DNA of 64,000 bases from Deinococcales bacterium (GTDB lineage: Bacteria > Deinococcota > Deinococci > Deinococcales > JAAFIG01): the NCBI GenBank assembly GCA_043778225.1, contig JAYWGM010000051.1:1-64000 (forward strand). Reading direction: 5' to 3'. Below are positions 56,344 to 59,028 of this stretch, piece after piece (position 1 is the first letter of the stretch; each line of letters opens with the position of its first letter). A model generated the notes under the pieces. The model saw only the letters and a program-made list of their open reading frames with translations, was not told the DNA's origin and did not search any database. Position numbers and translations under genes: made by a program.

Positions 56344-57525
56344 ATGATTGACCAAGATTTACGCGAAGCTGGCATCCAACCCGAAGACATCGAAACTAGG
56401 CTCGAGGGGCAAGGTGGAAAAGTTTTAATCATCACCAGCCGAGAATTGGTCTACTACGACAATTCACGACTACAACGCGGCAGGCTGCGTGAAATCGTCA
56501 ATGTGAAGACCGCTAAAACAGGCGAATTAACCGTTAAATCGCCTACCGAAACCCTGATAGATGGCAGTATTAAGGGCTTTGACTTAGCCGAACTCAAATT
56601 CTTTTTTGAAACTGTCAAGGGCGCGATTGCTCGAGCCAAAGCCAGTGCGACCGGCACAGATTTTCCAGCCCCCAAAGCCGCTATCCCAGAACCTATTACT
56701 GCCCCTCCAGCCCTTGCTTCAATGTGGGATGAAACACCAGCCCCAGCCCCGTCATGGGATGCTGCCCCACCACCATCTTGGGATACTGTGCCTCCAGCCC
56801 CATCGTGGGACACCACGCCGCCCACGCCCCCCAACACTTGGATGCCAGAAAAACAGACTTTTGAGGTTGGACCCGATGTCGTGGCGCACAATCCACAAAA
56901 AGATTCTTGGGCAGACTTGGATTCCGAACTCAATCCAGCCAAATCGGGCAGTCTGCCGGGTTTACTCAATGCCTCGGCAATGATTCCAGCCCCTAGCCCT
57001 GTCTTCCCAAGCAAAGCCCCCATAGACCCGTTTGCCGACCTTGCCCGCAATGCGCGTCCCAACAGTGGCGATGACTGGGGCAACTCGAGCAGTCCACCAA
57101 TCAACCTCAAACCTGATGCCAAGCCAGACATCGGCGCGACAGGTGTGATGGTTGCCTCGAGTGCCAGTGGTGAATGGGGCGGCGAAATTATGGATGCCAG
57201 CACCGCCTTGGATGCCAAAACTCCTAAGTCTGGTAAAGGTCAAACCATGCGCTTAGGCGACAACACGGCAGCAATCGAAGGGATTGCCCGTTGGCTAAGG
57301 ATTCTATCGATTGTGTTTTTGATTGTTGGTGCAATTTTACCAGCTTCAATTTTAATCGAAGCTGATTTTTCACCCAGTCTCAATCAATTGGCTCTGATTA
57401 TTGTCTCGTTCTTTGGTGGCTTATTATTGCCACTGATTGGCTGGGGCGTATCCGAACTCTTGGTCAGTTGGGCAAAAGCCGCCAGCGACTTGCGTTCGAT
57501 TCGTAAAGCCACGCTTGGGCATTAA
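56344..57525 (+). CDS. Hypothetical protein: PH-like N-domain, Pro/Trp-rich disordered linker, two C-terminal TMs
   Basis: GGGGAG RBS; repeated SWD..P motifs; hydrophobic C-terminus. Confidence 0.75.
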   Translation: MIDQDLREAGIQPEDIETRLEGQGGKVLIITSRELVYYDNSRLQRGRLREIVNVKTAKTGELTVKSPTETLIDGSIKGFDLAELKFFFETVKGAIARAKASATGTDFPAPKAAIPEPITAPPALASMWDETPAPAPSWDAAPPPSWDTVPPAPSWDTTPPTPPNTWMPEKQTFEVGPDVVAHNPQKDSWADLDSELNPAKSGSLPGLLNASAMIPAPSPVFPSKAPIDPFADLARNARPNSGDDWGNSSSPPINLKPDAKPDIGATGVMVASSASGEWGGEIMDASTALDAKTPKSGKGQTMRLGDNTAAIEGIARWLRILSIVFLIVGAILPASILIEADFSPSLNQLALIIVSFFGGLLLPLIGWGVSELLVSWAKAASDLRSIRKATLGH

Positions 57526-57559
57526 AAAAGGAGCATCATCACGATGCTCCAACTTTTTT
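57524..57559. terminator. Bidirectional intrinsic terminator
   Basis: AAAAAA-GGAGCATC-ATCAC-GATGCTCC-AACTTTTTT. Confidence 0.85.
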
Positions 57560-57682
57560 CTGGCTTGGCTTGGTCTTGGTTAAACTCCAAGCGCTTTTGC
57601 TGTCCTCGCAACGATAAGTCTCGAGGACAACACGGGTTTCGGGTTTAGTGGCAACAATAGTTGTTCGTAAAGTCTTTGTCAT
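57539..57682 (-). CDS. Micro-ORF C (47 aa)
   Basis: MTKTLRTTIVATKPETRVVLETYRCEDSKSAWSLTKTKPSQKKVGAS; overlaps micro-ORF B in the +1 frame, no own RBS. Confidence 0.45.
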   Translation of the reverse strand: MTKTLRTTIVATKPETRVVLETYRCEDSKSAWSLTKTKPSQKKVGAS

Positions 57683-57767
57683 GGTGTCGGTGGCGATCAG
57701 AGACGCGGAGCGCAGCGCGGATGAGAACGAAAGAATGATGTTTGATGGTCGGTTCTCTATTGGTCAT
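57645..57767 (-). CDS. Micro-ORF B (40 aa, His/Cys-rich)
   Basis: AAGGAG 6 nt before ATG; MTNREPTIKHHSFVLIRAALRVSDRHRHHDKDFTNNYCCH. Confidence 0.55.
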   Translation of the reverse strand: MTNREPTIKHHSFVLIRAALRVSDRHRHHDKDFTNNYCCH

Positions 57768-57787
57768 GACAAGCTCCTTATGATCAT

Positions 57788-57814
57788 AAAAAACCTCGGC
57801 GGGTAAGCCGAGGT
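57788..57814 (-). terminator. Internal terminator/attenuator hairpin
   Basis: Minus strand ACCTCGGC-TTACCC-GCCGAGGT-TTTTT between micro-ORFs A and B. Confidence 0.75.
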
Positions 57815-57832
57815 CATCTTTTAAGTAAAAAC

Positions 57833-57928
57833 TTAGATGGGTTCGGCAAAAACAAAATCGGCGGACAGGCGAAAACCTCGAGCCTCGAGTGCGCTGGGTT
57901 GGATAAATAAATTGTTGACCATCTGCAT
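57833..57928 (-). CDS. Micro-ORF A (31 aa)
   Basis: AAAGGAG 5 nt before ATG; MQMVNNLFIQPSALEARGFRLSADFVFAEPI. Confidence 0.55.
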   Translation of the reverse strand: MQMVNNLFIQPSALEARGFRLSADFVFAEPI

Positions 57929-57977
57929 TCACGCTCCTTTTGGATTTTCTGCGCCAAAGGCAGATTTGAGTACGCCA

Positions 57978-58006
57978 AGTGTACTAAGCCAAGTGCATTT
58001 GTGCAA
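57978..58006 (-). promoter_or_regulatory. Sigma70-type promoter of the micro-ORF unit
   Basis: Minus strand TTGCAC-17 nt-TACACT. Confidence 0.7.
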
Positions 58007-58089
58007 GCTACGCCAAAGGGCTTAGAGGACGGTTAAAAGGGGAAAAGGTTAGAAGGTAAAACCAATTTGACCTTTTAATCCTAAATCTT

Positions 58090-59028
58090 TTAGTATCCTT
58101 TTGCTCGGTCAATCAGATTCTCGAGGGGCTTACCCGCCATAAAGTTCTGAGCGTTGCGGCGCAGTAGGCTTTCGGCTTTGCGGTAAAAATTGGGTCCTCC
58201 ACCAGCAATATGTGGCGTTAAAATCAGATTCTCGAGTTTCCAAAGTGGGGAGTCTTCGGGCAGAGGTTCGGTTTGGGTCACATCCAGAGCCGCACCGCTC
58301 AGATGTCCAGACTCGAGGGCAGTCAGCAAATCGGTTTCGATAATCGCACTACCGCGCCCGACGTTGACCAGCCATGCACCTTTTTTGAATTGGGCTAGGC
58401 GCTGGCTCGAGATAAAACCGTGGGTCTCGGGGGTGTCGGGCAGCACCAAAATAACCGCATCAAAATTGGGCAGAATGTGGTCTATGTTCTCGAGTGCATG
58501 AATGGTGTAGGCTTGGTGCTGACGACCCGAACGGGTTACACCTTCTACGTCACAACCAAAAGGCACAAGGCGTTTGGCAATCTCGAGTCCGATGCTGCCA
58601 AACCCAACAATTAAAATTTTTGCACCCTCGAGCGTTAAAAAATCCTTACCCGTCAAGGCGTGCTGATACGCGCCTCTGTCCCATTTGGCATGGTGTTGGG
58701 CATCGCGGAAATGATGCAGACGGCGCACCCCAGCTAGTAACAAACTGACCGCCAATTCGGCGGTTGGGGCATCGTGCAGACCCTTGCCATTAGAAATCAG
58801 GATGTCTGCTCGGGGTGATAAATTCAGCACATGATCTACACCCGCCGAGAGGGTCTGAAGGTACTTTAGATTTGGCATTTGCAATAATGGCGCAAGCCTT
58901 TGCTTACCCCAAACAACCAGCGCATCGGTATTAAAAGCACTCAGATCATCTCGAGAACCAAAACGAACCACTTCAAGCGGAAAATTCTCGAGTGATAGCG
59001 GCACAGAATCTGGAATCAGAATTTGCAT
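58090..59028 (-). CDS. D-2-hydroxyacid dehydrogenase family protein
   Basis: SAGVD, GFGSIG, NVGRG, AALDVT..EPLP, TPHIAG; start ATG 59028. Confidence 0.92.
   Translation of the reverse strand: MQILIPDSVPLSLENFPLEVVRFGSRDDLSAFNTDALVVWGKQRLAPLLQMPNLKYLQTLSAGVDHVLNLSPRADILISNGKGLHDAPTAELAVSLLLAGVRRLHHFRDAQHHAKWDRGAYQHALTGKDFLTLEGAKILIVGFGSIGLEIAKRLVPFGCDVEGVTRSGRQHQAYTIHALENIDHILPNFDAVILVLPDTPETHGFISSQRLAQFKKGAWLVNVGRGSAIIETDLLTALESGHLSGAALDVTQTEPLPEDSPLWKLENLILTPHIAGGGPNFYRKAESLLRRNAQNFMAGKPLENLIDRAKGY

Follow-up and report, generated by a model that had tools for sequence, protein, structure and literature searches.

What is encoded in a gap between two genes that contains a promoter, two terminators and three very small open reading frames (ORFs), and that leads into no large gene? 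The question is raised by a locus of an uncultured Deinococcales bacterium, within the first 64,000 nucleotides (nt) of contig JAYWGM010000051.1 (assembly GCA_043778225.1). This whole stretch is referred to as the window, and the genome from which it comes as G000. The minus strand of the gap carries ORFs A, B and C in that order, the last beginning inside the second in another frame. A first-pass annotation, made from the letters alone, had listed the promoter, four short repeats, ribosome-binding sites, three ORFs, two terminators and a hairpin, all of which are found in place (Table 1). It had also reported, correctly, that no large gene lies downstream of ORF C on the minus strand in G000, and had concluded that the unit is not a normal leader attenuator. 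Comparison with related genomes points the other way. The unit is probably controlled by a ribosome-sensing leader-peptide attenuator, with ORF A as the leader, that gates ORFs B and C, of which B probably serves as an upstream or coupling frame and C is the putative effector.

The A-B-C unit is present in 16 of the 19 genomes of one uncultured Deinococcales family: all eight of the genus of the window (g1), both of genus g3 and all six of genus g5. Within g1 the block 58025-57500 is conserved and syntenic at an overall identity of 68-90% (80% in G003, G004 and G005; 75-90% across pieces in G001; 68% in G007), G006 matches it in patches only, and G002 has a divergent, non-syntenic copy. All six g5 genomes were matched using the G015 copy as query. 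Both g3 genomes, G009 (syntenic with g1) and G013, were recovered by a six-frame profile search together with an operator-word search; blastn with the g3 unit gave chance matches only, on CTCGAG-rich stretches. Because the block is conserved and syntenic within the genus and the architecture recurs in two further genera, the unit is more than a chance arrangement. The genomes compared are kin and hence non-independent, which bears on every conservation count given here. The unit was not found in either genome of genus g2, G008 (74% complete) and G012 (87% complete); the G012 contig stops 318 nt past the dehydrogenase-like gene that flanks the unit in the window.

G000 holds a single copy. The flanking genes differ among g1 and G009, G002, and g5, giving at least three neighbourhoods, and the unit is therefore self-contained; one inspected context carries permease-like and cysteine-desulfurase-like genes, named from reading their translations. 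The proposal of an unannotated, self-contained transcription unit of small ORFs is thus borne out by a single copy in varied surroundings. Loss of the ORFs, ribosome-binding sites or their order in relatives had been named in advance as grounds for abandoning that proposal, and all three are conserved across the 16 genomes.

The nature of the leader is indicated by the genome of genus g4, G010. There a homologue of the promoter, leader and terminator lies one gene beyond the same dehydrogenase gene and comprises the operator word, promoter, 5' leader with ribosome-binding site, an ORF A of 34 codons, the candidate antiterminator and a terminator almost the same as the g5 one. In place of B and C, genes for an ATP-binding cassette (ABC) ATPase and an ABC-2 permease begin 145 nt past the ORF A stop codon (leader and exporter together: L073 3020-3400 and L078 440-2221). 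Among known families the two proteins match DrrA and DrrB best, in each case below the curated cut-off. Since a homologous leader precedes an exporter in g4 and B and C elsewhere, the leader is a regulatory module with differing cargo. No close orthologue of the G010 ATPase (E up to 1e-60) was found in the other 18 family genomes, and the exporter may have been acquired and placed under a resident switch. A descent of B or C from remnants of the g4 ABC genes was considered and rejected (BLASTP E = 3.8, hhalign E = 0.73).

The g4 cargo, a drug-type ABC exporter, belongs to a class for which ribosome-mediated attenuation is established. As outlined in PMC4191407, bmrB-bmrCD of Bacillus subtilis is subject to ribosome-mediated attenuation, is induced by protein-synthesis inhibitors and has a promoter that is separately repressed. 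To the extent of that outline, the two systems share a separately controlled promoter, a translated leader ORF with alternative stem-loops and an intrinsic terminator, and downstream genes that are transcribed only on read-through (predicted here), the leader preceding an ABC exporter in g4. They differ in that the cargo in 16 of the 19 family genomes is two overlapping ORFs of 37-56 codons and no transporter, and in that the g4 exporter is of the ABC-2 (DrrAB-like) and not the BmrCD type. Closer to the present family, leader-peptide attenuation is predicted for 14 genes of Deinococcus deserti in the account of PMC4007540; the leaders described there are leaderless, whereas ORF A has a Shine-Dalgarno sequence.

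The expected alternative pairing is found around terminator 1, which begins 18-25 nt after ORF A and whose stem is invariant in g1 and carries compensatory and G-U changes in g5. When the transcript is folded up to the terminator 5' arm, i.e. before the 3' arm is made, the end of ORF A pairs with the top of that 5' arm in the minimum-energy fold of 17 of 17 genomes (14 together with G009, G010 and G013). The predicted antiterminator uses 4-6 nt of the 5' arm and is mutually exclusive with the terminator. Inside its outer helix in G000 are CAUCU/AGAUG and AAGU/ACUU helices containing the ORF A stop codon (57835-57833). The outer helix is GCCGA/UCGGC in g1, CCGUCG/CGGCGG in g5, CCGCCG/CGGCGG in g4, and GCGC/GGCG (G009) or CCGCC/GGCGG (G013) in g3. 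Where it differs between genera the terminator stem differs with it, and in every case the hairpin encloses the ORF A stop codon. Inner helices also vary with pairing kept, e.g. AAGU/ACUU versus AGGU/ACCU in G006. Dinucleotide shuffles folded as well in 0-8 of 300 trials for 13 of 16 genomes and in 5 of 200 for G013. The overlap of antiterminator and ORF A stop in every genome folded, taken with the exporter operon behind the g4 homologue, overturns the earlier dismissal of a leader attenuator. The fold of the whole 5' region is not special (z = -1.44). An Rfam scan of 57300-58300 in E-value mode gave best scores of 19.5 and 18.8 bits, against gathering thresholds of 42 and 50, and these sub-threshold matches cover the terminator hairpin only; no known RNA family matches, a check that had been called for at the outset.

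From the T-run of terminator 1 to the ribosome-binding site of ORF B there are about 7 nt in G000, about 8-25 nt in most other units and up to about 55 nt in G007, and the aligned units have no conserved promoter hexamers between terminator 1 and ORF B. The spacer thus appears to leave no room for a promoter, and B and C, if expressed, would require read-through of terminator 1, unless a promoter for them is buried within ORF A or terminator 1. Two peculiarities of single genomes belong to this spacer. G001 alone (L005) has a 58-nt insertion with CTCGAG between terminator 1 and the ORF B ribosome-binding site. In G000 alone the ORF B frame extends back across terminator 1 as far as a GTG at 57932 (95 residues; 57645-57932, minus strand), an extension that is incidental because relatives have stops there.

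The mechanism proposed from these features is as follows. The conserved promoter with its operator-like palindrome would start the transcript, of which ORF A would be the first cistron, encoding the leader peptide. The last codons and stop of ORF A would form the 5' half of a hairpin and the top of the terminator 1 5' arm its 3' half. A ribosome reaching the ORF A stop would melt this hairpin, terminator 1 would form and transcription would end after ORF A. Where no ribosome arrives, or one is slow or has stalled at an earlier codon of ORF A, the antiterminator would persist and polymerase would read into B and C. ORF B, with its strong ribosome-binding site, would probably deliver ribosomes to ORF C, which in g1 lacks a Shine-Dalgarno sequence and which would be the conserved effector product. 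Classical amino-acid attenuators (trpL, hisL) likewise have a leader ORF, an antiterminator and terminator with a common strand, and a leader stop placed so that the terminating ribosome masks the antiterminator. They differ from the present leader in having a run of codons for a single amino acid, not seen in ORF A, and a 1:2 'pause' hairpin, which was not found here; because of the latter difference, an untranslated transcript should read through and not terminate.

The promoter hexamers were read in the sequence; a consensus promoter scan did not list them, because the -35 matches at 3 of 6 positions only. The promoter, the most conserved stretch of the unit, is near-invariant across seven g1 sequences, and its g5 counterpart is 100% identical in 6/6 genomes. 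Of the TTGGC words, the second and third do not vary in g1, the first differs in G003, G004 and G005, and the fourth is missing in G006 and G007. The word TA(A/C/G)GC-N6-G(C/G)(G/C/T)TAG, which covers the inverted repeat upstream of the -35, is present in every unit read, and in G006 and G007 both half-sites are altered together (CTACGCC...GGCGTAG) with the palindrome intact. This pattern suggests a dedicated regulator. No regulon was detected in G000: among 15 loose matches only this locus has operator, -10 and terminator together, and the palindrome with at most one mismatch has five sites against a rough chance estimate of 2-3.

ORF A is open in 13/13 tabulated genomes and in G001, G009, G010 and G013 (17 read), starts with ATG or GTG and encodes 26-58 residues. 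The ORF of 31 residues first described is present, and its conserved start is instead the second ATG (57922), the first being ACG in G004 and missing in G006 and G007. The ratio of nonsynonymous to synonymous variation (pN/pS) is 0.63 in g1 and 0.69 in g5, a weak constraint, and five columns of the peptide are invariant in g1. Asn-Asn occurs near the N-terminus in most genomes, and these two Asn codons are the sole hint of sensing. The conserved C-terminus (…PI stop) overlaps the antiterminator strand, and its conservation may for that reason be a constraint on the RNA. A sensor or leader peptide, one of several roles first offered for the small ORFs, is plausible for ORF A. A and B were also compared as possible paralogues and the idea was rejected (hhalign probability 0.15%).

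Maintenance of reading frames is seen across the unit. Indels were counted as gap runs in frame-blind MAFFT alignments of g1 and g5. Inside the ORFs 15 of 16 gap runs are a multiple of three, versus 7 of 30 in the promoter, spacer and 3' segments (Fisher p = 4.9e-6). The in-frame counts are 3/3 in ORF A, 5/5 in ORF B and 2/2 in the B/C overlap for g1, and 1/2, 2/2 and 1/1 in the same regions, with 1/1 in ORF C, for g5. The g1 ORF C segment after the B stop, where MAFFT places gap runs of 5, 10, 13, 22, 3 and 3 nt, was left out of the count; its net between-sequence differences are 15, 18, 27, 3 and 3 nt, all in frame. Like ORF A, ORFs B and C are open in every tabulated genome (12/12 and 14/14), as they are in G009 and G013. 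The remaining frames are for the most part closed, the antisense -1 frame being open in 10/13 over ORF A and 11/14 over ORF C, and never in all.

Constraint on the encoded residues is less even than that on the frames. ORF B has a pN/pS of 0.70 (g1) and 0.80 (g5) and is unalignable between genera; only two His are invariant within g1, both overlapping the ORF C start, and the Cys are not conserved. ORF C has a pN/pS of 0.50 (g1) and 0.39 (g5), in both genera below the two shifted frames, which give 0.66-0.97. Its products have 36-56 residues across the family, are basic and Thr/Lys/Pro-rich, and contain the core A-W-S-L-T-K-T-K-P in G000 and W-S/T-L/I-T-K/R in the family, with W and T invariant. 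Even the divergent copy in G002 retains this motif, via four synonymous base changes. A dN/dS check was proposed with the first-pass annotation, and pN/pS separates the ORFs: C is constrained, and A and B are so only weakly (0.63-0.80). Judged by these comparisons, clear amino-acid constraint falls on ORF C only, and A and B appear to be kept as frames and not as sequences. As their frames are kept and their sequence constraint is weak, A and B look like frames that need translation, not proteins that need making.

Downstream ORFs that lack a ribosome-binding site of their own and overlap an upstream frame with a strong one are known from translational coupling of the hok/mok type. ORF C resembles these in g1 and g3, where it has no Shine-Dalgarno sequence and begins within the strongly ribosome-bound frame of ORF B; it differs in being basic and hydrophilic and not a membrane toxin, in having no evident antisense RNA, and in being preceded by its own GAGGA in g5. 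The overlap of B and C is 35-41 nt in g1, 35-47 nt in g3 and 49-55 nt in g5. Relative to B, the C frame is +1 in g1 and g3 and +2 (equal to -1) in g5. In G000 it is open back to the TGA that overlaps the ORF B ATG, in every g1 genome it is open over almost all of ORF B, and none of the 16 units lacks an ATG for ORF C.

Known relatives of these peptides were sought widely. A, B and C matched no family of Pfam or NCBIfam at E up to 10. For ORF C there was no match in a word-index homology search and no usable match in the ESM Atlas, three of its motif strings had no match in a full-text literature search, and a profile run against 1.84 billion representative proteins returned three matches, all from this clade. 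An order-wide sample of 301 genomes searched with the ORF C profile gave nothing convincing outside the family, three matches having E = 0.001-0.006, and none in the groups f2 (0/96) and f5 (0/68). The motif written as a degenerate DNA pattern found seven stretches in a genome collection, six being the same Deinococcales metagenome-assembled genomes and one a chance match in Neisseria. In a metagenome scan it found five, four of them inside unrelated larger genes. The fifth lies on the soil metagenome contig L030, where an ORF in high-GC DNA ends in a nonapeptide near-identical to the ORF C core, which is probably chance (about one chance match is expected). AlphaFold2 gave no confident fold for ORF C, with a predicted local distance difference test score of 63, a predicted template modelling score of 0.13 and no helix or other secondary structure. 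By its sequence, ORF C is a putative new small-protein family of narrow range, confined to this family of uncultured Deinococcus relatives.

Several observations weigh against the attenuator as proposed. A search for RNA runs containing this DNA found none. The helices are invariant within genera, so that covariation rests on few between-genus changes, and these were noticed post hoc. The full-length fold prefers the terminator in every genome and the outer helix is only 4-6 bp, so that only a kinetic switch would work. In three of the 17 genomes the shuffles give weak support (G011, 17/300; G017, 51/300; G009, 48/300), and neither a run of regulatory codons nor a known stalling motif was identified in ORF A. 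In g5 the pN/pS is lower in the +2 frame than in the sense frame both for ORF A (0.53 against 0.69) and for ORF B (0.69 against 0.80), and the codon-position variation of ORF B has no periodicity and no third-position excess. In G002, whose copy sits on a contig covered only 1.9-fold, ORF B is without an intact start. The hyper-abundance of CTCGAG in the genome may, at the DNA level, account for the shared 'ARG' and 'LE' residues. Finally, predicted structure does not hide the ORF C start, whose mean unpaired probability (0.20-0.76) is the same as in the rest of the transcript, so that the coupling of B to C is an inference only.

The points on folding, namely the thermodynamic dominance of the terminator in all full-length folds, the short outer helix and the weak shuffle support in G009, G011 and G017, together with the lack of sensing codons in ORF A, would equally suit two unregulated small-protein transcripts. 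Terminator 1 would then be simply leaky, the ORF A messenger the main product, B and C the result of constant low read-through, and the stop-codon hairpin without a switching role. We consider this unlikely, though to be kept in mind. In four genera ORF A ends in a copy of the top of the terminator 3' arm, although the stems differ, and the same leader stands before the g4 exporter operon, where a merely leaky terminator would be odd to conserve.

It is more doubtful still that ORF A, or the RNA of ORF A with terminator 1, is itself the functional product, as a trans-acting leader peptide or an attenuator-derived small RNA like peTrpL and rnTrpL of Sinorhizobium, with B and C secondary. Attenuator RNAs and leader peptides that function in trans exist, by the accounts in PMC6614838 and PMC7298713. 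Conservation in the unit is highest in the promoter, 5' leader and terminator 1, and the g1-invariant terminator stem exceeds the needs of a plain terminator. As in the S. meliloti system, so far as these sources describe it, a terminated leader transcript and its peptide could be products themselves; the resemblance ends there, the two being unrelated in sequence. The peptide is poorly conserved, with few invariant columns and a twofold spread of lengths, and the amino-acid constraint sits on ORF C.

A programmed frameshift fusion of B and C, or a role of the three peptides as metal-binding peptides or as precursors of ribosomally synthesised and post-translationally modified peptides (RiPPs), was prompted by features that are real. 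In all g1 genomes the C frame stays open over almost the whole of ORF B, in G002 the C frame contains the N-terminal part of B, and the G000 copy of ORF B is rich in His with two Cys. None of these suggestions survives well, and we hold the whole group to be very improbable. A conserved fusion is ruled out because the offset of C differs by genus and the g5 ORF C has its own GAGGA; no common slippery site was seen, an ATG is kept in all 16 units, and the low coverage of the G002 contig detracts from its evidence. Metal binding is countered by the lack of conservation of the Cys and of most His, the two that are invariant in g1 overlapping the ORF C start. RiPP precursors would call for maturation enzymes; ORF lists and translations of three contexts show none next to the unit.

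A non-coding RNA or type I toxin-antitoxin locus with incidental ORFs is just as hard to credit, for all that the antisense -1 frame is open over most copies of A and C and codon periodicity is weak for A and B, since in-frame indels are confined to the ORFs, pairs of Shine-Dalgarno sequence and ATG are conserved, the ORF C motif is retained via synonymous changes, no Rfam family reaches its threshold and no peptide is hydrophobic, ORF C being basic and without a predicted helix.

Table 1. Positions of the features of the A-B-C unit in the window, in order of transcription
Feature	Position (strand)	Description
Gap between two convergent genes, 564 bp	57526-58089	Holds the minus-strand unit A-B-C
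Operator-like inverted repeat	58008..58025 (-)	CTAAGCC-N4-GGCGTAG, directly upstream of the -35
Four TTGGC words	58016-58012, 57992-57988, 57978-57974, 57957-57953 (-)	Read in the sequence
Sigma-70-like promoter	57978..58006 (-)	TTGCAC 58006-58001, 17-nt spacer, TACACT 57983-57978; read in the sequence
Shine-Dalgarno sequence of ORF A	57934..57940 (-)	AAAGGAG; distance to the first ATG 5 nt, to the conserved second ATG 11 nt
ORF A	57833..57922 (-)	29 residues from the conserved ATG, 31 from 57928; ends FAEPI
Candidate antiterminator	57807..57847 (-)	GCCGA (57847-57843) pairs with UCGGC (57811-57807)
Intrinsic terminator 1	57786..57815 (-)	Stem 57815-57792, 9 bp, 6-nt loop, T-run to 57786
Shine-Dalgarno sequence of ORF B	57774..57779 (-)	AAGGAG; an AAGGAG-type site lies 6-8 nt before the ATG in every intact unit
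ORF B	57645..57767 (-)	40 residues, 6 His and 2 Cys in G000
ORF C	57539..57682 (-)	47 residues, +1 frame relative to B, no Shine-Dalgarno sequence
Local hairpin inside ORF C	57598..57632 (-)	7 bp; not conserved, relatives have in-frame indels there
Terminator 2, bidirectional	57524..57550 (-)	Stem 57550-57530, T-run to 57524; contains the ORF C stop 57541-57539

The surroundings of the unit in the window are otherwise simple. Its minus-strand neighbour is a gene of 324 residues that ends at 58090 and is 2-hydroxyacid-dehydrogenase-like, by reading of the translation and with no family search. The plus-strand neighbour, a gene of 393 residues (56344-57525), is convergent with the unit and has terminator 2 in common with it, this terminator being predicted on both strands. 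The product of the latter gene, read from its translation as a Pro-rich membrane protein, combines a Pro/Trp-rich repeat region of PAPSWD-like units with a hydrophobic C-terminal part. The hairpin within ORF C, described at first as strong, exists in G000 and is not a conserved element. The sole transfer RNA gene of the 64-kb window is located far from the unit.

Repeated words of several kinds were noted in these genomes. CTCGAG is by far the most over-represented hexamer in G000, with 24,877 copies in 4.03 Mb versus 931 expected from base composition (26.7-fold, one per 162 bp); the window has 428 copies versus 15 expected, and the unit three. A short dispersed repeat at 58014-58082, just upstream of the conserved block, has seven other partial copies on other G000 contigs, about 30-65 nt long and 78-94% identical, and relatives of G000 have TTTGCC-type low-complexity repeats in its place. 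The operator word in the form TAAGC-N6-GSBTAG occurs 0-4 times per genome in G008-G013 versus 13-43 times for a reversed control, and TAG-containing words may be avoided in these family genomes.

Attenuators are normally recognised by the enzyme or transporter that they control. Here the proposed switch would control two tiny overlapping genes only, and genome annotation consequently shows an empty gap. The family would offer a natural example of one attenuator module with exchanged cargo: three genera have small proteins behind it, and a fourth has an ABC-2 exporter. It would also serve as a test case for translation of an overlapping ORF without a Shine-Dalgarno sequence, in a phylum known for leaderless mRNAs. 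Expression of ORF C appears to be guarded at three levels, which suggests a potent or condition-specific function. A wider view, which we put forward tentatively and with low confidence, is that the leader is a portable translation-stress switch, fitted to an exporter in one genus and to ORF C in the rest. ORF C would then be made via an obligatory upstream frame only when ribosomes falter. Binding to ribosomes or nucleic acids is conceivable for its product, which would in that case be the peptide-sized equivalent of an inducible gene for resistance or tolerance.

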